Of a stretch of DNA of 64,000 nucleotides, positions 1,650 through 55,737 are shown in pieces; within the stretch, counting starts at the first letter, position 1, and every line of letters starts with the position of its first letter. Source of the stretch: Thermoplasmata archaeon (GTDB lineage Archaea > Thermoplasmatota > Thermoplasmata > RBG-16-68-12 > JAJISG01); assembly GCA_046758325.1 (NCBI GenBank), contig JBHHZZ010000001.1, forward strand, positions 17,016-81,015, given 5' to 3'. Under the pieces are notes generated by a model. The model worked only from the letters and a program-made list of their open reading frames with translations, was not told the DNA's origin and did no database searches. A program made the position numbers and the translations under genes.

Positions 1650-2399
1650 GTGTCCAAGACCGTGGAGGCTTCTGAACGGGAGAGGTGTTTGACGGGCATC
1701 GACGCTCTAGACAACATCCTCAACGGAGGCATCCCCTGGGGCAACACCGTGCTGGTGACGGGGAGCTGCGGCACCGGGAAGACCTCCCTCAGTCTGGAAT
1801 TCATCCTCCACGGGGCGGAGGAGGGAGAGATCGGCCTCTTCGTCGCGGCCACTGAGACTCCGGAAAAGCTCATAGGGAACATGATACCCTACGACTTCTT
1901 CGATTCGATGATGATGGAGGATGGGATGGTCCATCTGGTGGACCTCCATGACCTCTACAAGGCCGCTGGGATAGGAGAGCCAGAGATCGACAGGAAGAAG
2001 GCTGAGGCCCTGGTGAAGGCCATCGTTGCCGCCGTCAAGGAGAGGAAGGCGAAGCGGCTCGTGATAGACTCCATAACCTCCATCTGCGCGAGGCTAAACA
2101 CCGGAGACAGGATTCGGGAATTCATCACCGCCCTCAGCCACGCTCTCGCCAAGCAGGGCTGCACCGCCCTCCTGGTCTCGGAGGTCTCGGCGGGCTCCCA
2201 CGTCTACTCCCCCTACGGCGTGGAGGAGGCCGTGGTGGATGGCGTCATCCTCCTCGGGAACCTGGAACGAAGGGGAGACCTGCTGAGGACCTTGCAGGTA
2301 GTCAAGATGAGGGGAACGACCCACTCCAGGGCCATGTACATACTGGACCTCACCTCCTGCGGCGTCCTGCTGGCCCCCCTCCTCAAGGGAGGTGGGTAG
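1650..2399 (+). CDS. KaiC-like single RecA-domain ATPase
   Basis: GIDALDNIL...VTGSCGTGKTSL Walker A with a KaiC/RadA-like core; GTG start. Confidence 0.7.
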   Translation: MSKTVEASERERCLTGIDALDNILNGGIPWGNTVLVTGSCGTGKTSLSLEFILHGAEEGEIGLFVAATETPEKLIGNMIPYDFFDSMMMEDGMVHLVDLHDLYKAAGIGEPEIDRKKAEALVKAIVAAVKERKAKRLVIDSITSICARLNTGDRIREFITALSHALAKQGCTALLVSEVSAGSHVYSPYGVEEAVVDGVILLGNLERRGDLLRTLQVVKMRGTTHSRAMYILDLTSCGVLLAPLLKGGG

Positions 2400-2966
2400 T
2401 TGGCCCTCGCTACGGATGCCATGGGCAAGCTGCTGGAAATGCCGCCAGCATCGGCCGTCGCTATGGTGATGAAGGCGGAGCATTACTTCGATGCCGTCAG
2501 GGTGATCCTGGACGTGTTCGCTCCCAAGAGAGACGTTCATTCCATCTACGTCACGGCCACCATACCCTCCAAGTCCATCATCAACGCCCTGGAGGTCCTA
2601 GACGTGGACCTGAAGAGGACCTACTTCGTCGACTGCGTCTCGAGCATGATGATGGGCATCGGCGAGAGACATGAGAAGGCGGTCTATGTGGAGAGCCCCA
2701 GCATGCTGGAGAACATCATGCTCAAGGTGGAGTTCCTCATCAGGAAGCTGAAGGGGGTGGACTGCGTCGTCGTCATCGATTCCATAAACTCCCTGGCGAT
2801 CCACAACAGCCCCAAGATCCTCTCTGAGTTCCTACACATCCTCATCAACCATCTGCGATCCAGGAACGCGTACACCGTCATCTTCGCCATGGAGGAGTAC
2901 GCCACCGAGGAGATAGGAAACATCCTGAACCTGGTCTGTGACGACTCCGTCACCTTCACCGGCTAG
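2400..2966 (+). CDS. Degenerate KaiC/RecA-like domain protein lacking a Walker A motif
   Basis: Layout resembles a KaiC second domain (VVVIDSINSL, TVIFAME) but has no P-loop. It begins at TTG one nt after the TAG stop of the upstream KaiC-like gene, with GGAGGTG 7 nt upstream. Confidence 0.45.
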   Translation: MALATDAMGKLLEMPPASAVAMVMKAEHYFDAVRVILDVFAPKRDVHSIYVTATIPSKSIINALEVLDVDLKRTYFVDCVSSMMMGIGERHEKAVYVESPSMLENIMLKVEFLIRKLKGVDCVVVIDSINSLAIHNSPKILSEFLHILINHLRSRNAYTVIFAMEEYATEEIGNILNLVCDDSVTFTG

Positions 2967-3057
2967 GCGAATACCATTGGTGAGAATCGTAGGAAAGGGT
3001 TTATCTAGATTCCATCAGACCTCCTCCTTCGTAGGGAAACCTACAGGAGGACAGAAC

Positions 3058-3516
3058 TTGAGAAAGCCATGGGCGATCCGAAAGGATCAGGCCGCAGTGT
3101 CGCCGGTTATTGCTACCATCCTCATGGTGGCGATCACCGTCGTCCTGGCCGCAGTCCTGTACGTAATGGTATCAGGACTAGTCAGTGGTCCTGGGTCGAC
3201 GCCTGAAGTCATACTAGTCTCGGTCAGAAAGACCACAGACGGCACCAACTGGGAACTGACCTTCCAGGACGTTCCCACGGGGAAGAGCCTATCTTCCGTC
3301 TATCTGATTGTCTTCTACGGCAACGGAACCGTTGCACTGACGAAGACTGCCCTTAGCTCGCTAAGCGGCAACGCCCAGTTCGTACAGATAGATACTAGCG
3401 CAACAAGCATACAGGCCGGAGACAGGTTGCTGCTGAGCGTCACTACGTACGCAGCAGGCTCCACCTTCCAGTTGGTGGATGACAACGGCGTCCTAGCAAC
3501 GGGAACACTACAGTAG
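3058..3516 (+). CDS. Archaeal class III signal peptide (type IV pilin-like) protein
   Basis: MRKPWAIRKDQAAVSPVIATILMVAITVVLAAVLYV is a prepilin-like N-terminus. TTG start sits 8 nt downstream of GGAGG; an alternative ATG at 2938 overlaps the upstream gene. Confidence 0.5.
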   Translation: MRKPWAIRKDQAAVSPVIATILMVAITVVLAAVLYVMVSGLVSGPGSTPEVILVSVRKTTDGTNWELTFQDVPTGKSLSSVYLIVFYGNGTVALTKTALSSLSGNAQFVQIDTSATSIQAGDRLLLSVTTYAAGSTFQLVDDNGVLATGTLQ

Positions 3517-4552: not shown

Positions 4553-7500
4553 TTGGCCGAAGCAAAGACCATTAGGCAGACAATCAGCGTCACCCTCATT
4601 CTAGGTGGCATCTTCGCCCTCGCCGTCTTCATCCGGGCCTACTTCGCCTACGACCTGGCCCTCCGGGACTTCCTCGTGTCGGGAGGTTCCGACGCCTTCT
4701 ACTACAAACGCATCATCGACTACATCGTCTCCACGGGGAAGCACCTCGTCCGGGATGAGATGCTGAACTATCCCTTCGGAATGAACAACCCCAGGCCCCC
4801 CATCTACGCCTGGAGCGTGGCCCTCATCGGCATCCTGCTGGGCAACGTGCAGGGCTCCCTGGAGCTCGGAATATGGCAGAGCTTTCTCTTCTCCACCGCC
4901 TTCTGGGGCGCCCTCACCATCTTCCCCACCTACTTCCTGGCCCGGGACATCTTCGGCCGTCGGGTCGGGTTCGTGGCTGCATTCTTCTTGGCGATCCTCC
5001 CGGCCCACATTCAGAGGACGCCCCTGAGCAACGGGGACCACGACGCCCTCGTCCTCTTCTTCGTGGTGACTGCCTTCTACTTCTTCCTGAGGGCCTTGGG
5101 AGAGCTCAAGGAGAAGACCTGGGTGGACAACTGGATCAGGCCCACCACCGTATATCGGGGTTTGAGGCAGCTCATCGGGGAGAATAGAAGACCCGTCCTC
5201 CTATCGATCATGTCCGGCACGGCCATAGCGGTGGTGGCTCTCACCTGGCAGGGGTGGGCCTATGCCCCGGTGGTCGTAATAGCCTACTTCCTGGTCCAGC
5301 TCCTGGTGCACAAGTTGAGGAACCAGGACCCCCTGGGCACCCTCCTGTGCTTCACCGTGGCCCTGGGAACCGCTCATCTCCTGGCCGCTCCCTACTACAT
5401 CGCAACCGGCTTCGTCCGCACATGGTTCGACGTGCCCCTATTCCTCTTCGCCGCCTCTGTTGCCCTGGGCTTCCTCTTCGCCATCTTCCATCGCCTACCA
5501 TGGATGTTGGTCATCCCGCCCATCGTCCTTGGCTTCGGGGCCGGTCTTGCCATCGCATCCCTCTACAGTCCGGCGGTGGCCCAGACCCTGACCTCCGGTC
5601 TCGGTTACTTCGTCAGGACGAAGGTCTATGAGACCATCGCCGAGGCCCAGCCCCCTAACCTGAGCCAGGCAATCCTCTCCTTCGGCGCCGTGACATATTA
5701 CCTCTCCATGGTCGGCATCGTCTGGATGGCCATCCAGTTTGTTCGGAGGCCAAGGCTCCATTATCTCTTCGCCCTAGCGTGGAGCGCTGCGGCCATCTTC
5801 ATGGCCATGTCAGCCGTCCGGTTCATCTTCAACGCTTCCCCCGCCTTCGCCATCACCTCGGCGTGGGTGACGGTCCTCATCGTGGAGAGGCTGGGGCTAG
5901 AGCAGGTGAGGAAGGCCGTGGTATCCACGGGCGGGAGCAAATGGGTGGCCCTCAAGAGGGGGATAAAGGTCAGGCATGTGGCCGGAGCCCTCTTCGTTGC
6001 CCTTCTCCTCATCCTTCCTAACACCTGGTACGCCGTAGACGCTGCCATACCCTTCGAGAAGAAGCAGGAACTGGATCTGGAGGTGTACAGGAGCACGCCG
6101 GAGCCCCTGAGGCCCCAGGGCTACAGGGAGGGGAGTCTCTTCTACTTCGGCGCCTTCGGTTACAGTCTTCCCCTACCCAACAGGTACTTCCCGAAAGCTT
6201 GGGAATGGCTACGCCAGCAGGACGCCGACATAGTGCCGTATTGGGAGCGACCTGCCTTCCTGAGCTGGTGGGACTACGGGTTTGAGGCCATCCAAGAGGG
6301 CAGGCACCCGACAGTGGCGGACAACTTCCAGAACGGTCTCGAGTTCGCGGGTCACTTCCTGGCGGCCCAGAGCGAGAACGAGGCCATCGCGGTACTGAAC
6401 ATACGCCTCCTCCATGGAGACTTGACCCTCAACCGCGGCAGCTTCAGCGCGGGGGTCCGACAGGCCCTGGCCGATAAGGGCCTGGACCCTGATTTCGTGA
6501 AGGACGTCCTTCGCAGGCCCGCCGTCTACGTCCCCCTCATTAGGTCAGACCCGGATCGCTTCGGGGAATGGGATGTCCGACTCTCCAGCAAGAACGTGAG
6601 GGTGATCTTCCTCAAGACCGTGCTGACGGAGACGCTGGACCTGGACGGTCAGGCTGATCTCTATAGGGACCTGAGAAGCGCCACGGGCAACTCCGTCCTC
6701 TATTTCGCAGTCGACTCCCGACTCGTGCCCTTCTCAGGGACGAACACCGGGATATTCTACGCACCCATCAAGCTCACAGACCACAGAACGGTGGAATTGC
6801 CCGATGGCAGGAGCATACCCGTAGACTTCTACAGACTGGTGGCAGAGACAGACCGGGGGGAATATGACCTCGAAAAGGTGCCGCCAACGGCCAGGGTCAT
6901 CAACATCCGCATCGAGTACAAGGAGATGTTCTACAACAGCATGCTGTACAGAATCTTCTTCGGAACTCGCGGCCAGGACGTGGGTAAGGAGGACGATGGG
7001 CTTCCCGGGATATCTGGACAGCTGCAAGCAGAGGCACCCAGCCAAGGCCGAATGCTGAAGCACTTCAAAATGGTTTATCGAACGGCGTATTTCAACCCGA
7101 ACCCGCCCGACGAGGCCGCCAACAGAACGGAGGACTGGAGTGCCATCAACCTGTTCGACGCTCTGGAGCTGCAACAGAGCATCGAACGCGGGGAAGCAGA
7201 GGGGACCGTGGACATCTCGGCCCGAGCAAGTCTGCAACAGGGAATCGTCATCCTGAAGTACTACGACGGGGCCATCCTTAGGGGCCAGGTCACGACTCAG
7301 GCAGGCAGACCGCTGGAAGGAGTAAGGATAACAGTGCTCGACGACCTTTCCATACCCCACGATGTCACCTTCACAGACTCCAAGGGATTCTACGAAGCCC
7401 TGCTGCCCTTTGGGGAGGTCCGGGTGGTGGCCTCCGTGGGAGATGTGGACGGCGCTACCCAGACTGGGAGAACTGTCCTGGGCGAGAAAGAGCTGACGGT

Positions 7501-10500
7501 GAGCGAGGACCAGGCAATGAACCTCCCTCTGGACGTCGACGGCGATGGTCGCCCTGATTACCTCCTAGAGGAGCTGTTCCAGATCCAGGGGGCATCCCTG
7601 GAGGGCGTCGCCTTCCTGGACCTCAATGGAAACACGAGGAAGGACATGGAGGAAGGCACGCTTGAGGGACTGCAGGTGGAGGTTACGGACAGTAAGGGTG
7701 GTACCGTTGCCGCGACCCTGACGGACGCCGACGGGTTTTATCGGGTCACTGACCTCCTACCTGGCACCTACAACATCTCTCTCAGACGCGCGGACGCAAA
7801 GGTGGTGGAAACGGAAGTGACCATAACCCTGGGCGAGCGCAGGACTCAGGACCTGCCCGTCTTCGTCAAGCAACTGGCTGGCAGGGTGGTGGACGAGTTA
7901 GGTGGACCGGCGGAGGGAGCCCTAATCCAGCTGACGGAAGAGGCCACAGGCGTGCGGATCGTGACGGTGGCGAACGGCAAGGGAAACTACACCTTCGAAG
8001 GGCTCTTCGAGGGCAACTATACGCTGGAGGCCACCCTCGGAGAACGGGGCTCCCTCCCCAGGAGGTTGAGGATTGTACGGGGACAGAACACCACCGGAGA
8101 CCTAGAGGTGGAACCCATGGGCGAGCTCACAGGGAGATCCCTCCTTTCGTTTGTGCCGGCGCCTTTCGTGTCCTTTACATTGTTGAGGAGAGGGGACGGT
8201 CTTGCCGCAACCGTCATTAGCGACTCCTCAGCTCGCTTTGACGTGAGGTTGCCTGAAGGCACTTATGATGTCTACGCCTTGCACTTCGAGAGGAGCAGAC
8301 CCTACAGCTTTTTGGGAGCCCTCCAAGTGGGCGAAGGGAGCGTTCAGACTCTAGAGTTGAACCTCCAGCCCGCCTTGAGGGTCCATGGAAGCATCGTACA
8401 AGAGGACGGGACCGGGGCGGGCGGGGCCCACATTACTTTCGAGATGTCCGGGGCACAGACTACCCTCGTATCTGACAATGACGGCTCCTTCCTGGTGTAC
8501 CTACCACCTGGACCCTACAACTTGTGGGCCCTCTCGGAGGAGGGACAGCATGTATCCTCCTTGCTCTTGGAGACGACCACAAGTCTGGAGGTTCTCCTAG
8601 TAAGCGGGACGCCCGTGGAGGGAAGGGTTTTCTACGACAAAAACCGGAACGCCACGTGGGATGCCGGAGAGGGGCTGGAGGGCGTGCGGATTCAGCTCGT
8701 CGATTCCTCTGGAAGAGCCCTGTCTGTCATCACCCAGGAAGAGGGGAGGTACCGGGTTCCGCTCCTAAAGGAGACGAGCTACCGGCTGAGCATCGATGAG
8801 GCTGGTTTCACACCTATATCCCTCGGACCCTTCACGGCGACAGAGATGGCCGGCGTCGCCATCATCGAGCTGAGGCCTGAGACCCTTCAGGTTTCCGGAC
8901 GCCTCGAGGGGTCGGTGGACCTGGCGGGTATCGGTGTCCTCCTCGACGCCATCGGGGACGGCGCGACCTCCGTCGAGGTGACGACAGACGCCGCGGGCGC
9001 CTTCTCTGCCGAGGTCCTCCCTGGACTTTACAGGTTGGTAGTCGACGTCAGGGAGGACGGTGGCGGCGATGGCGTGAGAATCCAGAACCTGCAGGAGGAG
9101 ATTCTGAGGGTTCCCGTAGGAAAGGACGTGGGGCCCATCCTCATTCGAGTGGTCAGAAGGGTACTGGTGGAGGGGCAGATTGATGTGGAAGGGGGCCCCT
9201 TTGAGGGGGCACTTTCATTTATCGGCCCTGAGGAGGCCTCTCTCAACATCCAGGGGGAGTTCGCAACATACCTGCAGCCGGGAAACTACACTATCTACGC
9301 GACCGCCCAGCTGAACTTCAAGAAGTATGCGCTCCTGGAGCACAGAGACCTCACATCACCGGCAAACCTCTCCTTCACCCTAGATGAGGCCGCGGTTCTG
9401 TCAGGGGGTGTGAAGGTGGGAGATTCCATCGTCTCAAACAGCATTCCCCTGAGCTTCCTCCGCCAGGATGGGGCAAGGGTGGAGCTGCAGACTGAGGTCT
9501 CAGGGACCTACCTGGCAATCCTCTCTGGTGGTACATATCAGGTAAACCTCGAGTGGCGGGGCCTGGACGAGGTTGACGGCCTTCGGAGATTCGTTCGCTA
9601 TACCTTCAGTCAGGAGGTAACGGTCCAGGGAGGACAACCGGAACAGCTTGACCTCACGCTGAGCAGGTCCCTGGACAACGCTACCCTTGTGACTGAAGTG
9701 CTCCTCTCTGACCAGCTGGTCTCAGCTACCCTCACCTTTGAGGCAGCAAATGAGACAGCGGTGTCCACAACTGTCAAGGCTCCCGCTGGGACCTCTTTTG
9801 AGGTCTCTTTGGCGCCTGGAACCTACAGCATCTACGCCTACAGGGACACGGGCAAGTCGGTAAACCTGACCATGCTGGAGGTGGTGCCCTACATGAGCAA
9901 CGAGGCCACACTTCGCCTGGAGGCTGGATATAGAGTCGCCGGCGTCGTCTCTCTCGAGGATGGCACCAAGGAGACAGCGAGGATAGAGTTCACGTCGGTG
10001 GCAAGCATTAGCTTCGACTCCGACGGGCTAGGCATCTTCGAGGCGTATCTCCCCAAGGGCCAGTACCAGGTGACGGCCACCTCCCAGAGGCTCGAAAGGG
10101 GGATGCTCGTCGACTACGAGTTCTCTGGTCCCCTGGACATCAGGGAGAGTACCCTCCTGAACCTGCAGCTGGCCAGGGTAACCTTCCAGGGCGTGGAAGT
10201 CATATGGGATCCGTTGGAGAGGACCAGCGCCCTTCCAGGAGAGGGAGCGGTGTACACCCTGACCTTGAGGAACACGGGAAACGTGGAGGACAGCTTCAGA
10301 CTGGAGGGCCGACCCCAGGACTGGGGATTCGACTTCGACCCCCCAGTCGTGACCCTGCCCTTCGGTGAGAGTAGCGAGACTACCGTCAAGCTTACCATCA
10401 CCTCTCCCGACGACGCCGAGGTGGCTCATGAGCCTCTCGTCATCGAGGCCGTCTCCACCTCCAATGCCAGCGTTATGGAATTCACCCAGGTTGAGCTCGA

Positions 10501-11020
10501 CATACTTCAGATCAGGGGAGTCGTCCTACGTCTTTCGGAGGAGCCCCCTGTGCTGTCACCCGGGGCACTGGAGTACGAGGTCGAGGTGTTCAACGAGGGG
10601 AATGGGGAGGATATCTACACCCTCATCCTGACGAACCCAGAGACCCTCTCCATCCAGGGATGGAGAGCGAAGCTTCTCTACAAAAACCAGACCTCCCCAG
10701 ACAGGACGGAGGATGTCGCGGTCCCAGCTAGGGAGGCGAGGTCAGTGACCCTGAGGCTGGAGACAACGGGCCCCGTCAGCGCCTCCAAGGTTGTTCTGCT
10801 GGCCTTTTCCCAGGATGATCGCAATGTGGAGTCTTACCTAGAGGTGAAGCTCTCCTTCCCTTCCCTTGACATTCCCATTGAGGATGTAAGCCTCGAAGGG
10901 AAGAACGTGAGGTTGGGACCTCCGGAGTTCCCACTGATCCTCTACGCGGCCATAGCAGCGGCCGCCGTCCTCGCGGCCATCATCCTCATTCGGTACAGAC
11001 AGAAGAGGTGGCGCCGTTGA
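4553..11020 (+). CDS. aglB: Giant AglB/STT3 oligosaccharyltransferase (2155 aa): N-terminal multi-TM STT3 domain with WWDYG, then about 8 tandem CarboxypepD_reg/Cna-B (SdrD-B-like) beta-sandwich repeats and a C-terminal TM anchor
   Basis: WWDYGFEAIQ catalytic motif near nt 6268. Repeats of the form G.V.D..G.PLEGV.I.L.D......TDA.GFY....L.PG.Y.L span about nt 7250-10850. Hydrophobic LILYAAIAAAAVLAAIILI lies at the C-terminus. TTG start. Confidence 0.8.
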   Translation: MAEAKTIRQTISVTLILGGIFALAVFIRAYFAYDLALRDFLVSGGSDAFYYKRIIDYIVSTGKHLVRDEMLNYPFGMNNPRPPIYAWSVALIGILLGNVQGSLELGIWQSFLFSTAFWGALTIFPTYFLARDIFGRRVGFVAAFFLAILPAHIQRTPLSNGDHDALVLFFVVTAFYFFLRALGELKEKTWVDNWIRPTTVYRGLRQLIGENRRPVLLSIMSGTAIAVVALTWQGWAYAPVVVIAYFLVQLLVHKLRNQDPLGTLLCFTVALGTAHLLAAPYYIATGFVRTWFDVPLFLFAASVALGFLFAIFHRLPWMLVIPPIVLGFGAGLAIASLYSPAVAQTLTSGLGYFVRTKVYETIAEAQPPNLSQAILSFGAVTYYLSMVGIVWMAIQFVRRPRLHYLFALAWSAAAIFMAMSAVRFIFNASPAFAITSAWVTVLIVERLGLEQVRKAVVSTGGSKWVALKRGIKVRHVAGALFVALLLILPNTWYAVDAAIPFEKKQELDLEVYRSTPEPLRPQGYREGSLFYFGAFGYSLPLPNRYFPKAWEWLRQQDADIVPYWERPAFLSWWDYGFEAIQEGRHPTVADNFQNGLEFAGHFLAAQSENEAIAVLNIRLLHGDLTLNRGSFSAGVRQALADKGLDPDFVKDVLRRPAVYVPLIRSDPDRFGEWDVRLSSKNVRVIFLKTVLTETLDLDGQADLYRDLRSATGNSVLYFAVDSRLVPFSGTNTGIFYAPIKLTDHRTVELPDGRSIPVDFYRLVAETDRGEYDLEKVPPTARVINIRIEYKEMFYNSMLYRIFFGTRGQDVGKEDDGLPGISGQLQAEAPSQGRMLKHFKMVYRTAYFNPNPPDEAANRTEDWSAINLFDALELQQSIERGEAEGTVDISARASLQQGIVILKYYDGAILRGQVTTQAGRPLEGVRITVLDDLSIPHDVTFTDSKGFYEALLPFGEVRVVASVGDVDGATQTGRTVLGEKELTVSEDQAMNLPLDVDGDGRPDYLLEELFQIQGASLEGVAFLDLNGNTRKDMEEGTLEGLQVEVTDSKGGTVAATLTDADGFYRVTDLLPGTYNISLRRADAKVVETEVTITLGERRTQDLPVFVKQLAGRVVDELGGPAEGALIQLTEEATGVRIVTVANGKGNYTFEGLFEGNYTLEATLGERGSLPRRLRIVRGQNTTGDLEVEPMGELTGRSLLSFVPAPFVSFTLLRRGDGLAATVISDSSARFDVRLPEGTYDVYALHFERSRPYSFLGALQVGEGSVQTLELNLQPALRVHGSIVQEDGTGAGGAHITFEMSGAQTTLVSDNDGSFLVYLPPGPYNLWALSEEGQHVSSLLLETTTSLEVLLVSGTPVEGRVFYDKNRNATWDAGEGLEGVRIQLVDSSGRALSVITQEEGRYRVPLLKETSYRLSIDEAGFTPISLGPFTATEMAGVAIIELRPETLQVSGRLEGSVDLAGIGVLLDAIGDGATSVEVTTDAAGAFSAEVLPGLYRLVVDVREDGGGDGVRIQNLQEEILRVPVGKDVGPILIRVVRRVLVEGQIDVEGGPFEGALSFIGPEEASLNIQGEFATYLQPGNYTIYATAQLNFKKYALLEHRDLTSPANLSFTLDEAAVLSGGVKVGDSIVSNSIPLSFLRQDGARVELQTEVSGTYLAILSGGTYQVNLEWRGLDEVDGLRRFVRYTFSQEVTVQGGQPEQLDLTLSRSLDNATLVTEVLLSDQLVSATLTFEAANETAVSTTVKAPAGTSFEVSLAPGTYSIYAYRDTGKSVNLTMLEVVPYMSNEATLRLEAGYRVAGVVSLEDGTKETARIEFTSVASISFDSDGLGIFEAYLPKGQYQVTATSQRLERGMLVDYEFSGPLDIRESTLLNLQLARVTFQGVEVIWDPLERTSALPGEGAVYTLTLRNTGNVEDSFRLEGRPQDWGFDFDPPVVTLPFGESSETTVKLTITSPDDAEVAHEPLVIEAVSTSNASVMEFTQVELDILQIRGVVLRLSEEPPVLSPGALEYEVEVFNEGNGEDIYTLILTNPETLSIQGWRAKLLYKNQTSPDRTEDVAVPAREARSVTLRLETTGPVSASKVVLLAFSQDDRNVESYLEVKLSFPSLDIPIEDVSLEGKNVRLGPPEFPLILYAAIAAAAVLAAIILIRYRQKRWRR

Positions 11021-16044: not shown

Positions 16045-17589
16045 ATGGTTTCCTCCCGCTGGGCCCTCCTGAGCACCTTCAACAAGGAGGGGATAGAGGA
16101 CCTATCAAGGGAGCTTCTGGATTGGAACTACGGGTTGCTGGCCAGCGATGGAACGGCCTCTCACCTCACTGCCAAGGGTCTAAGAGTTCGGACGGTGGCA
16201 AGCCTCACGGGTTGGGAACAGCTCCTCCATGGAAGGGTCAAGACCCTCCATCCGAGGATAATGGCTGGGATACTGGCTGACAGGGACAAGGAACACGACA
16301 TGAAGGAGCTGGAGGGACTTGGCGTGTCCCCCATCGACGTCGTGGTCGTCAACCTGTACCCTTTTGAGGAGATGGCTAAGACAGGCACCGCGCCCCTGGA
16401 AGCAGTGGAGATGGTGGATGTGGGCGGTGTCGCCCTGATCAGGGCGGCGGCCAAGAACTGGCCCCACGTGAGTGTCCTCACGAGCTCCTCCCAATATGCA
16501 GCCTTCGTCCAGGAGCTGAGGTCGTCGCAGGGAGAGGTGTCGAAGGAAATCAGACGTCGACTGGCCGTTGAGGCCTTCGCCGTCACCAGCCGCTACGAGG
16601 CTTCCATCTACAACTACCTATCCCGGACCCTCAACGAGGACGCCTTTCCTGCAGAGCTTCGCATCGCCTATGGGGGGGCTGCAAAGCTCAGATACGGGGA
16701 AAACCCCTACCAGAAGGCGGCCTTCTACAGGGACCCTGGATATGAGGGAGCCTCCGTCGCCCAGTCAGAGGAGCTGTTCGGGAGGGGCCTCTCCTTCAAC
16801 AACATCTTGGACCTGGACGCCGCTCTTGAACTCATCATGAAGTTCGATAGGCCTACGGCGGCCATCATCAAACATACCAACGCCTCAGGCGTGGCCAGCT
16901 CCGACGTCCTGGGGGAAGCCTACAAGCTTGCCCGCGCCACCGATCCGAAGTCAGCCTATGGGTCTGTGGTGGGCTTCAACCGGAAGGTGGATGGGGGTAC
17001 GGCGGAGGCCATGAAGAAGCACTTCATCGAAGCTGTGATCGCGCCCGATTTCGAGGAGGGAGCCCTTGAGATTCTCAGGCAGAAGAAGAAGCTGCGAGCC
17101 TTGCGGACGGGAAGGGATACGCGGTGGGAGCCTTGCACCCATGCCCTAGGCATCCGAGGCGGCATCTTGGTGCAGACTAGGGAGCGGGTCCCGATTCGAC
17201 CTGAGAGCATGAAGACGGTGACCAAAGTGAAGCCCACACAGGACCAGGTGAGGACGATGCTCTTCGCCTACAAAGTGCTCGGACACGTCAAGTCCAACGG
17301 TATCGTCCTGGCCAAGGATGAGAGGACCGTGGGCATCGGCAGTGGACAGATGAGTCGTGTGGATGCGGTCGTCGTGGCCGGGATGAAGGCCGGAAAGGAG
17401 GCCAATGGCTCCGTGCTGGCCAGCGATGCCTTCTTCCCTTTCAGGGATGGTATCGATGAAGCAGCCAGGGTGGGGGTGGAGGCCATCGTCCAACCGGGGG
17501 GCTCCATAAGGGATGATGAGGTCATCCAGGCCGCCAACGAGCATGGCATGGCCATGGTATTCACTGGCGTGAGGGTGTTCAAGCACTGA
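16045..17589 (+). CDS. purH: AICAR transformylase/IMP cyclohydrolase
   Basis: MGS-like N-domain followed by the AICARFT domain, 514 aa. Confidence 0.85.
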   Translation: MVSSRWALLSTFNKEGIEDLSRELLDWNYGLLASDGTASHLTAKGLRVRTVASLTGWEQLLHGRVKTLHPRIMAGILADRDKEHDMKELEGLGVSPIDVVVVNLYPFEEMAKTGTAPLEAVEMVDVGGVALIRAAAKNWPHVSVLTSSSQYAAFVQELRSSQGEVSKEIRRRLAVEAFAVTSRYEASIYNYLSRTLNEDAFPAELRIAYGGAAKLRYGENPYQKAAFYRDPGYEGASVAQSEELFGRGLSFNNILDLDAALELIMKFDRPTAAIIKHTNASGVASSDVLGEAYKLARATDPKSAYGSVVGFNRKVDGGTAEAMKKHFIEAVIAPDFEEGALEILRQKKKLRALRTGRDTRWEPCTHALGIRGGILVQTRERVPIRPESMKTVTKVKPTQDQVRTMLFAYKVLGHVKSNGIVLAKDERTVGIGSGQMSRVDAVVVAGMKAGKEANGSVLASDAFFPFRDGIDEAARVGVEAIVQPGGSIRDDEVIQAANEHGMAMVFTGVRVFKH

Positions 17590-45027: not shown

Positions 45028-45445
45028 CAGGAACCGCCTAGGTTCGTTCCATGGAGCCCTGGGGCTGATAAGCTTATCCTTTCAATTCTTACGGGCGATA
45101 AGGTGGAGGGGTTCTGCCGTGGCACTCATTCAAACCGCCACCCACCTACGCCGCCGCGATGCACTCACCAAGGGGCGATGCGTTCAGGGCCATGACGAGG
45201 TCGTGAGTCTCCGAGAAAGATAGGGTCATAGCGGGGCCTGGAAGTTCAGTCCGGGGATGACGGTTTGAGACCGCCCCCGGGCATTTGAACCAGGGATCTC
45301 CGGGTTATGAGCCCGGCGGGATTTTAGGCTCCGACTCCCCGGGAAGGGCATCCGGGATCCGGGGTTTCCTAGCTACCCCACCCCGCTTCTGCTTCATAGA
45401 CCGTAGCGTCGAATATTAATGTATCGCCACCCGGAGGCCAATGGA

Positions 45446-51518: not shown

Positions 51519-52388
51519 TTGTTCGAGCCCGGCAAGCTGCTGCGCGGCATACCCATCACCGACGATCACATTCACCTCAGGCCCGAAGGCCGAATGGTGG
51601 AGGCAGTCAGGGAGTTTCACCGCCAAGGAGGAACCCGCCTGCTGCTCGTCCACACCCCGTACGAGGACCTGATGGCTGCCAGGGTGGGCAGTTTCGAGGC
51701 TGGGTACCAGAGGACTCTTTCCATAGCGAAGCGGGTGCGGGAGAGGGGAGGGGTGGAGATTCACGTCGCCCTGGGGCCCCATCCCGTGGAACTCCTCGCC
51801 CTGGAGGAGGCCGTGGGTCTGGAGAGGGCCGTGGACACGATGAGGTCTGGCCTAGAAGCTGCTTCTCGCCACGTCGTCGACGGACAGGCCATCGCCATAG
51901 GGGAGATAGGGAGACCCCACTTCCCGGTGGACAAGACAATCTGGAAGCACTCAAACGAGCTGATGGCCCACGGGATGCAGCTTGCCAAGGAGGCGGGGTG
52001 CGCCGTCATACTTCACACCGAGGAGGCCACGCCGGGGACCTTCAAGGAACTGGCTGAAACGGCGGACGCCGTGGGGATACCTCGCGGGAAGGTGGTTAAG
52101 CACCACTCTGCCCCTCTCGTTCTCCAGGAGGAGAACCACGGCATCTTTCCCTCCGTGATAGCCAAGGGGGACAATCTGCTGAGGGCGGCCAGAAAGGATC
52201 TGAGGTTCTTGACGGAGACGGACTACCTGGATGACCCAGAGAGGCCCGGAGCTGTTCTTGGACCAGGAACCGTTCCCAGGCGCTGTGCTCGACTCCTGCA
52301 GAAGGGCATCCTCTCAAGGGAGGATCTCCATAAAATTCACGAGGACAACGTGCGTCATGTCTACGGAGCGCGGTTTACCTCCGAATGA
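51519..52388 (+). CDS. TatD-related metal-dependent hydrolase
   Basis: DDHIHL...IGEIG...ILHTEEA...KHH matches the TIM-barrel amidohydrolase/TatD pattern. Confidence 0.5.
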   Translation: MFEPGKLLRGIPITDDHIHLRPEGRMVEAVREFHRQGGTRLLLVHTPYEDLMAARVGSFEAGYQRTLSIAKRVRERGGVEIHVALGPHPVELLALEEAVGLERAVDTMRSGLEAASRHVVDGQAIAIGEIGRPHFPVDKTIWKHSNELMAHGMQLAKEAGCAVILHTEEATPGTFKELAETADAVGIPRGKVVKHHSAPLVLQEENHGIFPSVIAKGDNLLRAARKDLRFLTETDYLDDPERPGAVLGPGTVPRRCARLLQKGILSREDLHKIHEDNVRHVYGARFTSE

Positions 52389-52650
52389 AGAAGTCCTCGA
52401 ACTCCCCCTCATAGTCCTCCCAGGAAACCTTGGCCTCGGTGACCCTGGCATAGGGCTGACGGGTCCGGCACCAGTCGACGAGCTCCTCCACCCTATCCTT
52501 GGATCCCTCCAAAACGGCCTCCACGGAGCCATCCCTCAGGTTCCTGACCCAGCCCACGACTCCCAACTCCTCCGCCTTCCGGCGGGTGTTGTCTCTGAAG
52601 AAGACCCCCTGAACCCTTCCGAGGAAGATGACATGAGCCCGAACATTCAT
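52375..52650 (-). CDS. acyP: Acylphosphatase
   Basis: VRAHVIFLGRVQGVFFR...GWVRNLRDGSVEAVLEG. Confidence 0.7.
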   Translation of the reverse strand: MNVRAHVIFLGRVQGVFFRDNTRRKAEELGVVGWVRNLRDGSVEAVLEGSKDRVEELVDWCRTRQPYARVTEAKVSWEDYEGEFEDFFIRR

Positions 52651-52708
52651 CGCAAAGTTCAAGGATGAACATACATATGATTGTGTCGGCGCCCCCCAAG
52701 CTCATATA

Positions 52709-53899
52709 TTGATGGCGCGTAGGGAGACCCTTCGGACAGTGACGCAGATGAGAAGCCGGACCATTCTTGACTTCAGGGTCAAAGACCTCATGTCCACCAA
52801 GCCTGTGACGGCCAAGCCCGACGAGGATGTCTCAGAGATCATGGGGAAGATGAAGAAGTACGATGTACACGATGTCCCCGTCATCCAGGGAAGAAGACTC
52901 TTGGGGACGGTATCCTACAGCACCCTTCTGAAGAGAAGGAACCTGCCCATGACGACCAGGATCGACAGCCTTCTCATGAGACCTCCGAAGGTCGGGGAGG
53001 AGGACGACCTCCCCCATATCGCTGAAATCCTCATGTCTTCGGGTTACAGGGCCCTGCCGGTGGTCAGAGACGACACCCTGGTGGGCATCATCTCTAGGAC
53101 AGATGTGGTGAGGGCTATCGCCGAGGCAGAGGAGTTTTCCGGCCTGGAGATAAGCGCCATCATGACGCCGGACCCCCAGGTCGTGAGGGAGGAAGATACC
53201 ATCCTCAGGGCCCGGGAGATGATGAGGGCGCTGGACGAAAGGGCGATTCCTGTTGTGAACGAGGCGGGAAGGGTTACGGGAGTCGTTGGTCTCAAGGACC
53301 TAGTAGAGGTCCTCACCAGGCCTAGGAAGAAGGCCACCACCGGCGATGTGTCTGGGGAGAAGACCCCCGTGGAGGCGGAGGTAAAGGGTTTCATGAGCGT
53401 ACCGCCGATAACCGTGAGACCTGAAGAGAGCGTGGCAGAGGCGGCCAGGCTCATGGAGGAGTTCGGCATCTCCAGCGTTGTGGTGGTAGAGGATGGAAAG
53501 CCTGTAGGGATCGTCACCCAGGTAGACCTTCTGGAACACGTAGCGGCCCTGAAGGGGAGGGAGGAGGTCTTCGTCCAGATAAGCGGGTTGGATGAGGAGG
53601 ACTGGTGGACCTACGAGAGCCTCTACTCCGTCATCGGAAGGGGGCTTCGAAGGATAGCCAGCATAGTGAGGCCCACCATCTTCAGCGTCCACGTTGTGAC
53701 CCATCGGAGCGGGGGCGACAGGGCCAAGTATTCCATCGGGGCAAGGCTCACCACGGAGAACGGCCTGTACATCGCCAGAGACTACGACTGGGACCCCAAC
53801 ATGGCCATGCACAAGGTCATGAATCAGCTGGAGCGGCGCATCAAGAAGGAGAAAGAGCTGAAGGTAGGGCTGAAGAAGAGTCACAGAGACAAGGGCTAG
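52709..53899 (+). CDS. Four-CBS-domain protein fused to a C-terminal HPF/RaiA (ribosome hibernation factor)-like domain
   Basis: Two CBS pairs; C-terminal VQISGLDE...IFSVHVVTHRSGGDRAKYSIGARLTTENGLYIARDYDWDPNMAMHKVMNQLERRIKKEKE parallels the S30AE/HPF fold. Confidence 0.5.
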   Translation: MMARRETLRTVTQMRSRTILDFRVKDLMSTKPVTAKPDEDVSEIMGKMKKYDVHDVPVIQGRRLLGTVSYSTLLKRRNLPMTTRIDSLLMRPPKVGEEDDLPHIAEILMSSGYRALPVVRDDTLVGIISRTDVVRAIAEAEEFSGLEISAIMTPDPQVVREEDTILRAREMMRALDERAIPVVNEAGRVTGVVGLKDLVEVLTRPRKKATTGDVSGEKTPVEAEVKGFMSVPPITVRPEESVAEAARLMEEFGISSVVVVEDGKPVGIVTQVDLLEHVAALKGREEVFVQISGLDEEDWWTYESLYSVIGRGLRRIASIVRPTIFSVHVVTHRSGGDRAKYSIGARLTTENGLYIARDYDWDPNMAMHKVMNQLERRIKKEKELKVGLKKSHRDKG

Positions 53900-53919: not shown

Positions 53920-54284
53920 CTCGTGATACGCTTCCCCGTGGGAAGACGAAGGCGGAGCTGACGGGAGAGAACCCTAGGACGGCGGAGGCGATCTGGGCCC
54001 GCCTGCCCATCGACGGCAAAGCCCTGCGTTGGGGGAAGGAGGTCTACTTCTACGTGGACTTCGACCTGCCTCGGGAGAACGGGCGGGAGGTCCTGAAGGT
54101 GGGGGAAGTGGGCTACTGGCCTGAGGGCAAGGCCGTCGCCATCTTCTTCGGGCCGACGCCTTCAAGCCGCGGGGAGGAGCCAAGAGCGTACTCGGAAGTG
54201 AACGTCTTCGCCCGCCTCGTGGACGATCCTATGATACTCGACGCTGTGCGAGAGGGCGAGAGAGTGGAAATCCGTCAGGGATAG
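53920..54284 (+). pseudogene. Cyclophilin-like (PF04126-type) small protein with an apparent frameshift near 53940
   Basis: Frame A reads V(GTG)IRFPVGRRRRS* to 53960. Frame B, open from 53874 and lacking a canonical start, reads KTKAELTGENPRTAEAIWARLPIDGKALRWGKEVYFYVDFDLPRENG...GYWPEGKAVAIFFGPTP...VNVFARL; the joined product resembles the complete family. Confidence 0.35.
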
Positions 54285-54289
54285 GAAGG

Positions 54290-55584
54290 TCAGAGCTGTT
54301 TGAACTCCCTGGTGAGAAGGGCTCTCTGCCTCTCCACCAAGGCGAGAAGGTCGATGGGTATGATGAGCTTCGCACCCGTGGACGGTACGGTGTCCTTCAG
54401 GGTCTGGAGGAGCTTCATCACCTCGGTAAAGCTGTTCTGGACGAAGAGGTACTCCACGCCGTCCAGAAGCACGACTCCCTTCTCCTCCCTGGACAGGAAC
54501 TTGTCGATCCTGTCCGCCAAGGATTCCAGGGAACTGACGGCTTCCTTTTCCTTCGCCTGTCCGTTGGTGAGCCAGTAGACCTTCGCACCTTCCAGGTCCC
54601 AGCTTCCCTTCAGCTTGTCAGGATAGGTGCGGGTTATGCATAGCCCGCTATGCCCCTTCTTCAGCTCTTGGGCGAAAACCTTGAGGGCCTTGTTCTGCCC
54701 CTGGGTAACCAGGTAGGCCTCTCCAGGCTCGAGCTCGGGGGGCTTCTCCGACCTCGACCCGTCAGCCCTCATGTCCCGGCCCTGGAAGCCGTTCCTCCTC
54801 TTTTTCACGTGCCGAGCTGCGATGTAGAGGCCCACGAGGGACGTCATGAACAGCAGGAGAAACATGGTGGCGGCCCTGTCCTGGGAGTCCTCCGCGAAGG
54901 CGGTGCCCACGCTGAAGCTGGAGGTTGCGGCCACCTCCTTGACCCCTCCATAGGTCGCGACAACGTAGAGGTCCTGTCCCACCCCCGACACCGGCCACAC
55001 GCTTGAGGCCCTTCCCTCGGGGGTCGGGAACCTGCTTTCGGCGAAGACCAAGTCACCAGGTGACCTGTACCACTGGAAACTGACCTCCTCCAGGAGGGTG
55101 GCGTTTCCCGCGTATGTCAGGATGGCGGTGGCGGTGGCCGTCCCTCCGGGGTCGACGACGGGACTGCCTAACTCCAGCCGGATGTCCATCACCACGGCCA
55201 TGTCCTCGGGATTGAAGGCCTCAAAGGACAGGTTGTAGGCCAGGGATGTGGCGTCTGATGTCAAGACGACGTCTAGGTAGTAGACGCCTGTCGTCGGCAG
55301 GAGCAGGGTGGAAGAGGCTGAGGCCGAGCGGGGTCCCTCAGTGTCTAGGATGGCGGACTCCACGGTCACATTTCCATCCGGGAGGAACCATCGGAAGGTC
55401 ACGGTGTCGGTCCCATCGGGCGTGGAGGAGTAGGAGGCCATCGCCCTGGCCGTAGCGGTCATCCCTCTCACGTATGCGGGGGAGTCCATAGAGGCGTAGA
55501 TGGCCTCAGGACTGGCGGTGCCGCCTGGAATCAGCGAGAGGGAAAGCAGACTCAGGACTAGGAGGAAGGGGTACAGCCCTTTCA
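54290..55584 (-). CDS. Membrane receptor-like protein: signal peptide, extracellular domain, one TM, cytoplasmic DUF835 (degenerate KaiC/RecA-like) domain
   Basis: MKGLYPFLLVLSLLSLSLIPG signal; TM MFLLLFMTSLVGLYIAARH; C-terminal GLCITRTYPDKL...VYWLT...VVLLDGVEYL...KLIIPIDL matches the DUF835 pattern. Confidence 0.5.
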
Positions 55585-55737
55585 TTGACTCGGACGAAGC
55601 CATCGAAGGGTCTGCTTAAATCCCTAATGCAACCATTTTCTTTCTTGATTCCATCTATCGATATCGACCGTTAGGCGTGAGAGAACCGGAGCTCGGAGGC
55701 TTTAAGACGGCGTATCCCTTCAAACCCCTGGAAGACC

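Follow-up and report, generated by a model that had tools for sequence, protein, structure and literature searches.

A CBS tetrad fused to an HPF/RaiA-like domain in a Methanomassiliicoccales-like archaeon: a probable orthologue of the archaeal hibernation factor HibA/AHA

A gene within the window (the whole stretch of 64,000 nt of archaeal DNA that was analysed) encodes four CBS domains followed by a domain resembling the bacterial ribosome hibernation factors HPF and RaiA. Sequence, structural models and homology to characterised proteins make it highly probable that this gene is the HibA/AHA orthologue of a Methanomassiliicoccales-like archaeon, and that its product acts as the characterised members of the family do. 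The domain architecture, the folds, the full-length homology and the conservation of a loop and of ribose-binding residue pairs are established here. As the protein would belong to a family that has already been described and characterised experimentally, the finding is one that is already known. The features discussed below are as follows (residues in the numbering of the 383-aa product).

52375..52662, reverse strand: acylphosphatase (AcyP) gene, divergent from hibA
52701-52708, forward strand: TATA-like box CTCA(T/A)ATA, made up of invariant columns in the AcyP-HibA intergenic alignment
52748..53899, forward strand: hibA/AHA gene, likely coding sequence, 383 aa plus a TAG stop at 53897-53899
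52775..53545, forward strand: CBS tetrad (two Bateman modules), defined by four PF00571 stretches and the AlphaFold2 model; CBS1 at about 10-62, CBS2 at about 71-126, CBS3 at about 135-190 and CBS4 at 212-266
53315..53380, forward strand: extended loop ending CBS3, residues 190-211, TRPRKKATTGDVSGEKTPVEAE, which aligns with the HibA PTC loop
53561..53896, forward strand: HPF/RaiA-like domain, residues 272-383, defined by secondary structure, Foldseek, PF02482/TIGR00741 and a profile search; beta1 275-279, alpha1 286-304, beta2 309-320, beta3 326-336, beta4 339-347 and a long, basic alpha2 350-382

The gene and its relationship to HibA/AHA

The ORF listing of the window contains a mechanical ORF at 52709..53899 on the forward strand, which opens with TTG and is 396 aa long. 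These are exactly the coordinates given in the preliminary description, and the four strings quoted there (QISGL, HVVTHRSG, YSIGARL and QLERRIKKEKE) are all present in the translation. The real start of hibA is most likely the ATG at 52748, 39 nt 3' of the TTG, as indicated by the length of a database protein, by homologue N-termini and by the position of an upstream box. The database protein (P0001) has 383 aa and is identical to the product read from this ATG; most homologues in the protein collection are 379-385 aa long, and in the alignment the methionine at 52748 falls where their N-termini line up. When the AcyP-hibA intergenic region (52663..52747, about 85 bp) was aligned between the window and three Methanomassiliicoccales metagenome-assembled genome (MAG) loci, blocks reading TGTGTCG..CCC.CAA.CTCA(T/A)ATA were conserved in the four genomes. 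The box (52701-52708) ends directly before the TTG and lies about 43 nt upstream of the ATG; we infer that it is a putative archaeal promoter element of hibA. A sigma-70 promoter scan, whose bacterial-type consensus does not cover archaeal promoters, gave no match, and a scan for terminator-like sequences, again with a bacterial-type consensus, gave no excess over chance expectation.

In a phmmer search, residues 23-389 of the query matched residues 5-379 of chain H of PDB entry 9SR9, a full-length match with E 1.9e-33. Under data availability, Madru et al. (Nat Commun 2026, PMC13324472) list 9SR9 as the HibA-ATP model of Pyrococcus abyssi HibA; the depositors gave the molecule the name 'Dehydrogenase'. 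BLASTP against the P. abyssi HibA sequence, reconstructed from the 9SR9 alignment, gave 29% identity over 381 columns (E 4e-35), and the two proteins (392 aa for HibA, 383 aa here) are collinear throughout, from CBS1 to the last helix. As to whether the CBS module belongs with that of HibA (HibA-CM) or with CM-1 to CM-6, Sri or Dri, bit scores against the PDB favour HibA: it scored 119, whereas all others scored at most 82, with Sri chains at 72.6 or less and Dri at 59; Foldseek was without power to separate these clades. A further CBS-HPF chain of 406 aa and haloarchaeal appearance (9L96_a) was matched in two collinear pieces (E 5.4e-22), and a literature search found no paper behind PDB 9L96. 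Several homologues have been named by JGI 'CBS domain-containing protein/ribosome-associated translation inhibitor RaiA', while the NCBI name for homologues is 'CBS domain-containing protein'.

HibA, known from P. abyssi (PAB0961/Q9UYR4; PDB 9SR9-9SRF and 9T7H) and Thermococcus barophilus, was discovered when stressed P. abyssi cells were studied by cryo-EM. [quoted passage not shown] It inhibits translation in vitro; the C-terminal domain is required for this, and the isolated CBS module does not inhibit (PMC13324472). Deletion of hibA in T. barophilus doubled the lag phase and lowered 70S ribosomes by about 60% (PMC13324472). The same family was described independently as AHA from Haloferax volcanii (HVO_2384; Souza et al., bioRxiv 2026, PMC12934967), where knockout cells lost viability and were depleted of ribosomal proteins (PMC12934967); knockout strains of the homologues are delayed in regrowth (PMC13324472, PMC12934967). 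The queries used to define the AHA family included a Methanomassiliicoccales protein, A0A0Q4BAF9 (PMC12934967). The preliminary description regarded HPF homologues as uncommon in archaea, a view that is now outdated: among 4026 archaeal genomes, 47% have HibA (PMC13324472), while 3,160 AHA homologues occur in 2,723 of 6,968 archaeal species, with a standalone HPF in a further 814 (PMC12934967). The family would thus be present in about 40-47% of archaeal genomes.

[quoted passage not shown] The two modules would hold the idle 70S ribosome together, block translation and guard the ribosome against degradation in stationary phase or under stress. Ribosome binding, inhibition of translation and AMP binding would be properties that the present protein shares with its homologues. 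The settings of the three proteins differ in several respects. P. abyssi is a hyperthermophile, whereas the present host is of a mesophilic, Methanomassiliicoccales-like type, and control by the Phr regulator has been reported for the HibA of Thermococcales. H. volcanii AHA combines an AMPK-gamma-like CBS tetrad with an HPF domain, as the present protein does, but haloarchaeal proteins are acidic and more divergent.

The CBS tetrad, its loop and its nucleotide sites

Four N-terminal CBS domains had been recognised in the preliminary description, and Pfam likewise placed four PF00571 stretches there (E 3.7e-53 to 4.4e-53). An AlphaFold2 model of the full-length protein, built on the family alignment, reached a pLDDT of 88.3 and a pTM of 0.82; in the CBS module it displays four beta-alpha-beta-beta-alpha repeats with pLDDT mostly above 90. 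We predict that this tetrad is an adenylate-binding and large-subunit-binding module. The best PDB matches of the full-length model in Foldseek were ribosome-bound CBS tetrads, such as chain 4 of 9ZNF (the Methanosarcina SriA/SriB complex, E 3.7e-21) and Pyrobaculum Dri (9E6Q, E 2.4e-19); crystal structures of CBS tetrads from archaea, together with AMPK gamma, ranked next. The AHA tetrad has likewise been placed structurally near the Sri and Dri tetrads and AMPK gamma (PMC12934967).

The nearest structures to the present tetrad belong to the hibernation factors that consist of a standalone or double CBS tetrad, namely SriA-D from Methanosarcina acetivorans (PMC13454478), ARC-A/ARC-P and Dri from Pyrobaculum calidifontis. 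All have a long loop after CBS3, but they lack an HPF domain and bind in other orientations or at other sites; their distribution is largely exclusive with that of HibA/AHA (PMC13324472, PMC12934967). AMPK gamma has the same four-CBS fold (Foldseek E about 1e-16, TM about 0.5-0.65), with adenylate pockets built on Ser/Thr-Asp pairs. It has no HPF domain, however, and the present protein has no kinase partner; its output would be occlusion of the ribosome rather than phosphorylation. In the sequence comparisons, NCBIfam HhpR matched the CBS region with E 3.7e-17 but fell far short of the 520 bits that its cut-off demands. Assignment as an IMPDH or other dehydrogenase, or as a generic CBS protein, was considered and rejected: there is no catalytic domain, and those families matched the CBS regions only, far below their cut-offs.

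The loop that ends CBS3 is the counterpart of the 'PTC loop' of HibA and of 'loop 3' of AHA. It aligns with residues 190-207 of P. abyssi HibA (KPRFKAQYGELAGEKIP) in the common pattern PR.KA..G...GEK.P, and its best-kept positions in the family alignment are G199 (34 of 51 sequences) and G203 (42 of 51). On the ribosome, the P. abyssi loop folds around an adenine of the PTC that is universally conserved (PMC13324472). In the AlphaFold2 model of the free protein, pLDDT falls below 50 at residues 195-206, as would be expected if the loop became ordered only on the ribosome. Its role at the PTC would be the one described for HibA and AHA (PMC13324472, PMC12934967).

Ser/Thr-x-x-Asp pairs of the ribose-binding type are conserved in two of the repeats. 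In CBS2 the pair is S116 (44/51) and D119 (46/51), and in CBS4 it is T257 (45/51) and D260 (48/51). CBS3 carries G181 and D184, with an almost invariant glycine, and CBS1 lacks the aspartate. The CBS module of HibA binds AMP, ADP and ATP with Kd values of 12, 65 and 113 uM (PMC13324472), and by homology the present tetrad probably binds adenine nucleotides, AMP best. The pattern of pairs differs from that of P. abyssi HibA, in which, as read off the alignment, it is CBS3 and CBS4 that carry the canonical Ser/Thr-Asp pairs. The nucleotide site of P. abyssi HibA is at the CBS3/CBS4 interface (PMC13324472), and two AMP molecules are found at CBS3/CBS4 in AHA (PMC12934967). Usage of the nucleotide sites may therefore differ between the present protein and P. 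abyssi HibA. Judged on sequence, this appears to be a difference at the level of motifs only, and it is the sole mildly new point at the locus.

These sites raise the question of whether the protein is an energy-charge switch, in which an adenylate on the CBS tetrad would directly gate ribosome binding by the HPF domain, through binding of AMP and release by ATP. The preference of the HibA module for AMP over ADP and ATP and the position of its nucleotides at the CBS3/CBS4 interface (PMC13324472) are consistent with such a switch, as are the conserved pairs in CBS2 and CBS4 of the present protein. Ribosome-bound AHA contains its two AMP molecules, and the level of AHA protein is constant across growth phases (PMC12934967), which suggests post-translational control. 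ATP has been found to free ARC-A and ARC-P, separate CBS factors of Methanolobus, from ribosomes (10.64898/2026.01.19.700304). This ATP-triggered release, however, has been shown only for the ARC factors. For P. abyssi, 5 mM AMP or ATP left the conformational landscape of reconstituted 70S:HibA complexes largely unchanged, native HibA complexes were without nucleotide, and the authors could not conclude on a role for ATP in release (PMC13324472). We regard direct gating as possible but doubtful. The term 'CBS-gated' in the preliminary description goes beyond the evidence, since AMP and ATP had no clear effect on ribosome binding by HibA in vitro (PMC13324472).

A narrower proposal can be derived from the motif difference, namely that the Methanomassiliicoccales-type clade uses another set or number of adenylate sites and, in addition, has genuine AMP/ATP gating of ribosome binding. 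We consider this combination improbable. A HibA/AHA orthologue acting as its characterised relatives do is the reading that we retain.

The C-terminal HPF/RaiA domain

No HPF match was present among the best 50 rows when the full-length model was compared with the PDB by Foldseek, and the HibA entries were absent from these rows also. The CBS tetrad dominated that search, and the C-terminal domain was therefore modelled on its own. The isolated model had a pLDDT of 92.4. DSSP assigned strands to residues 4-8, 38-49, 55-65 and 68-76 and helices to 12-33 and 79-111 of this model, and the order strand-helix-strand-strand-strand-helix was seen in both the full-length and the isolated models. Its Foldseek ranks 1-33 in the PDB were all HPF, RaiA, pY, YfiA, RafH or MPY structures (probability 1.00, TM 0.47-0.76), among them chloroplast pY, Thermus protein Y, Vibrio and Escherichia coli HPF, RaiA, mycobacterial MPY and RafH, and Listeria and Staphylococcus HPF.

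The single sequence gave a fainter signal. For the C-terminal 107 aa, the best Pfam match was PF02482 (Ribosomal_S30AE), at E 0.0015 and 19.6 bits, which is below the gathering score of 23.7; the best NCBIfam match was TIGR00741 (HPF/YfiA), at E 3.9e-4 and 20.8 bits, below the cut-off of 40.9. The preliminary description would have been abandoned had the region failed to match HPF profiles above background, and with these E-values it did not fail. Within the family the signal was stronger: 38 of 51 aligned members matched PF02482 at E <= 0.01, the best at E 3e-9, and some passed the threshold. When a profile of 26 C-terminal domains was compared with all PDB sequences, 28 matches were obtained at E <= 1, of which 25 were of the HPF, RaiA, YfiA, protein Y or HibA type, and the PDB matches spanned nearly the whole domain. 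Precomputed Pfam assignments list PF02482 for two homologues (P0099 and P0109) and PF00571 only for most. Taken from the single sequence, the HPF signal is weak but specific; taken at the level of the family and of the modelled structure, it is firm. By the curated cut-offs the domain is not a member of these HPF families; it represents a distant branch, in archaea, of the HPF fold and superfamily. The architecture put forward in the preliminary description, a CBS tetrad with a bacterial-type HPF/RaiA domain, is thus borne out by Pfam, the family profile and Foldseek, and is the one that defines HibA/AHA.

The domain shares fold and topology with bacterial HPF/RaiA (YfiA, protein Y) and plastid pY, with a sequence likeness that is weak but specific, and cryo-EM of two homologues of the present protein places them at the same 30S site as bacterial HPF. 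We predict that it acts as a plug of the 30S mRNA/tRNA channel. Several differences from the bacterial proteins are apparent. Bacterial HPF stands alone or carries the dimerisation domain of long HPF, whereas the present domain has a CBS tetrad fused to its N-terminal side and ends in a longer, basic helix. Small insertions specific to archaea have been reported, but no 100S dimerisation has been reported for HibA.

The presence of this domain bears on two further readings. The first takes the protein as a nucleotide-sensing regulator of some other partner, either proteins of DNA replication and recombination or a transcription target, as with HhpR, for which ribosome binding would be secondary. 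In pull-downs, the HibA of Thermococcales was linked to factors of replication and recombination, and a model with a sequestering partner was raised by the authors of that work; HhpR, moreover, is among the NCBIfam matches of the CBS region. However, HhpR-type (CM-3) proteins have no HPF domain (PMC13324472), whereas here the domain is present and, in the model, well folded. It is the full P. abyssi protein that inhibits translation and the isolated CBS module that does not (PMC13324472), and HibA is the best match by a wide margin of bit score. This reading is in our view very improbable. The second, that the HPF likeness is due to chance or convergence in a merely generic 'CBS domain-containing protein', could appeal to the sub-threshold PF02482 and TIGR00741 scores and to the precomputed assignments, but it is effectively refuted by two independent HPF models heading the C-terminal matches, by the PF02482 matches of the homologues, by a family profile that retrieves almost only HPF chains, by the 33 leading structural matches and by the cryo-EM position of the domain in two homologues, and it has next to no standing beside an HibA/AHA orthologue.

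Genomic setting and significance

The closest genomes are those of uncultured Methanomassiliicoccales MAGs, with 65-74% identity in HibA and 93% in TBP, and database homologues are labelled Thermoplasmata or Thermoplasmatota. On these sequence identities, the host is a Methanomassiliicoccales-like archaeon, uncultured and represented by MAG-type sequence alone. TBP and a TatD-family hydrolase lie upstream of hibA and M24 peptidases on either side; in order, the neighbours are an M24 peptidase, TBP, TatD, AcyP, a cyclophilin-like protein, a DUF835 protein, a second M24 peptidase and an ABC transporter. The arrangement TBP-TatD-AcyP-HibA, with AcyP on the reverse strand and hibA on the forward strand, was kept in relatives with HibA identities as low as 44-49% (L005 and L006) and lost at 34% (L007). 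Among the annotated neighbours none is related to the ribosome, and we therefore read this order as synteny of the lineage, not as a functional module. A search of all six-frame ORFs of at least 60 aa in the window with both halves of the protein and a family HMM revealed no second CBS-tetrad or HPF gene, whether of the Sri, ARC or Dri type or a paralogue; only hibA was matched.

Some features of the flanking DNA were observed in passing. In locus L005 (GCA_030157145.1), an IS605-type OrfB/TnpB-like gene (PF01385, weak, and PF27234) at 2166..3494 on the reverse strand lies between the AcyP gene and hibA. The cyclophilin-like gene of the window (PF04126; 53920..54284, forward strand), about 24 nt downstream of hibA, appears to be frameshifted. 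Only 54054..54284 is present as an ORF, which corresponds to positions 54-120 of the 120 in the Pfam model; the missing N-terminus can be read in the neighbouring frame as 'MIRFPVG', starting with a GTG near 53923, and continues as GKTKAELTGENPRTAEAIW in the main frame, with the switch at a run of G near 53938-53946. Either an assembly error or a pseudogene would account for this. The gene is absent from the position next to hibA in the related loci L001-L003. The DUF835 protein (54290..55603, reverse strand) has 437 aa with a signal-peptide or TM-like N-terminus and the DUF835 domain at its C-terminus, and its gene adjoins hibA also in L001-L003 and L005.

Elsewhere in the window, a 2155-aa ORF at 4553..11020 (forward strand) begins with an STT3 oligosaccharyltransferase (AglB-like) domain, after which come numerous repeats of the CarboxypepD_reg, SdrD_B and prealbumin-like types; for an oligosaccharyltransferase from an archaeon, the fusion is unusually long. 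ARAGORN called a 79-nt tRNA-Met (CAT) at 45269..45347 on the reverse strand, with the anticodon at position 39. A scan of the whole window at Rfam gathering thresholds gave no match, not even to a tRNA, and the call may represent an atypical or intron-bearing tRNA or may be false. PurH (AICARFT/IMPCHase) is encoded at 16045..17589 on the forward strand, as a housekeeping gene. In Methanosarcina a repurposed PurH-aEF2 complex dimerises 50S subunits (PMC13324472); nothing suggests such a role for PurH here.

The value of the locus lies in its correct annotation, since the records for such proteins say 'CBS domain-containing protein' and the PDB entry says 'Dehydrogenase'. We regard it as very probably one more HibA/AHA orthologue, together with a minor lead on how nucleotide-site motifs may vary between clades. 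The CBS-HPF fusion itself is biologically important, as cryo-EM, biochemical and genetic work on Thermococcales and Haloferax (2025-2026) has already established.
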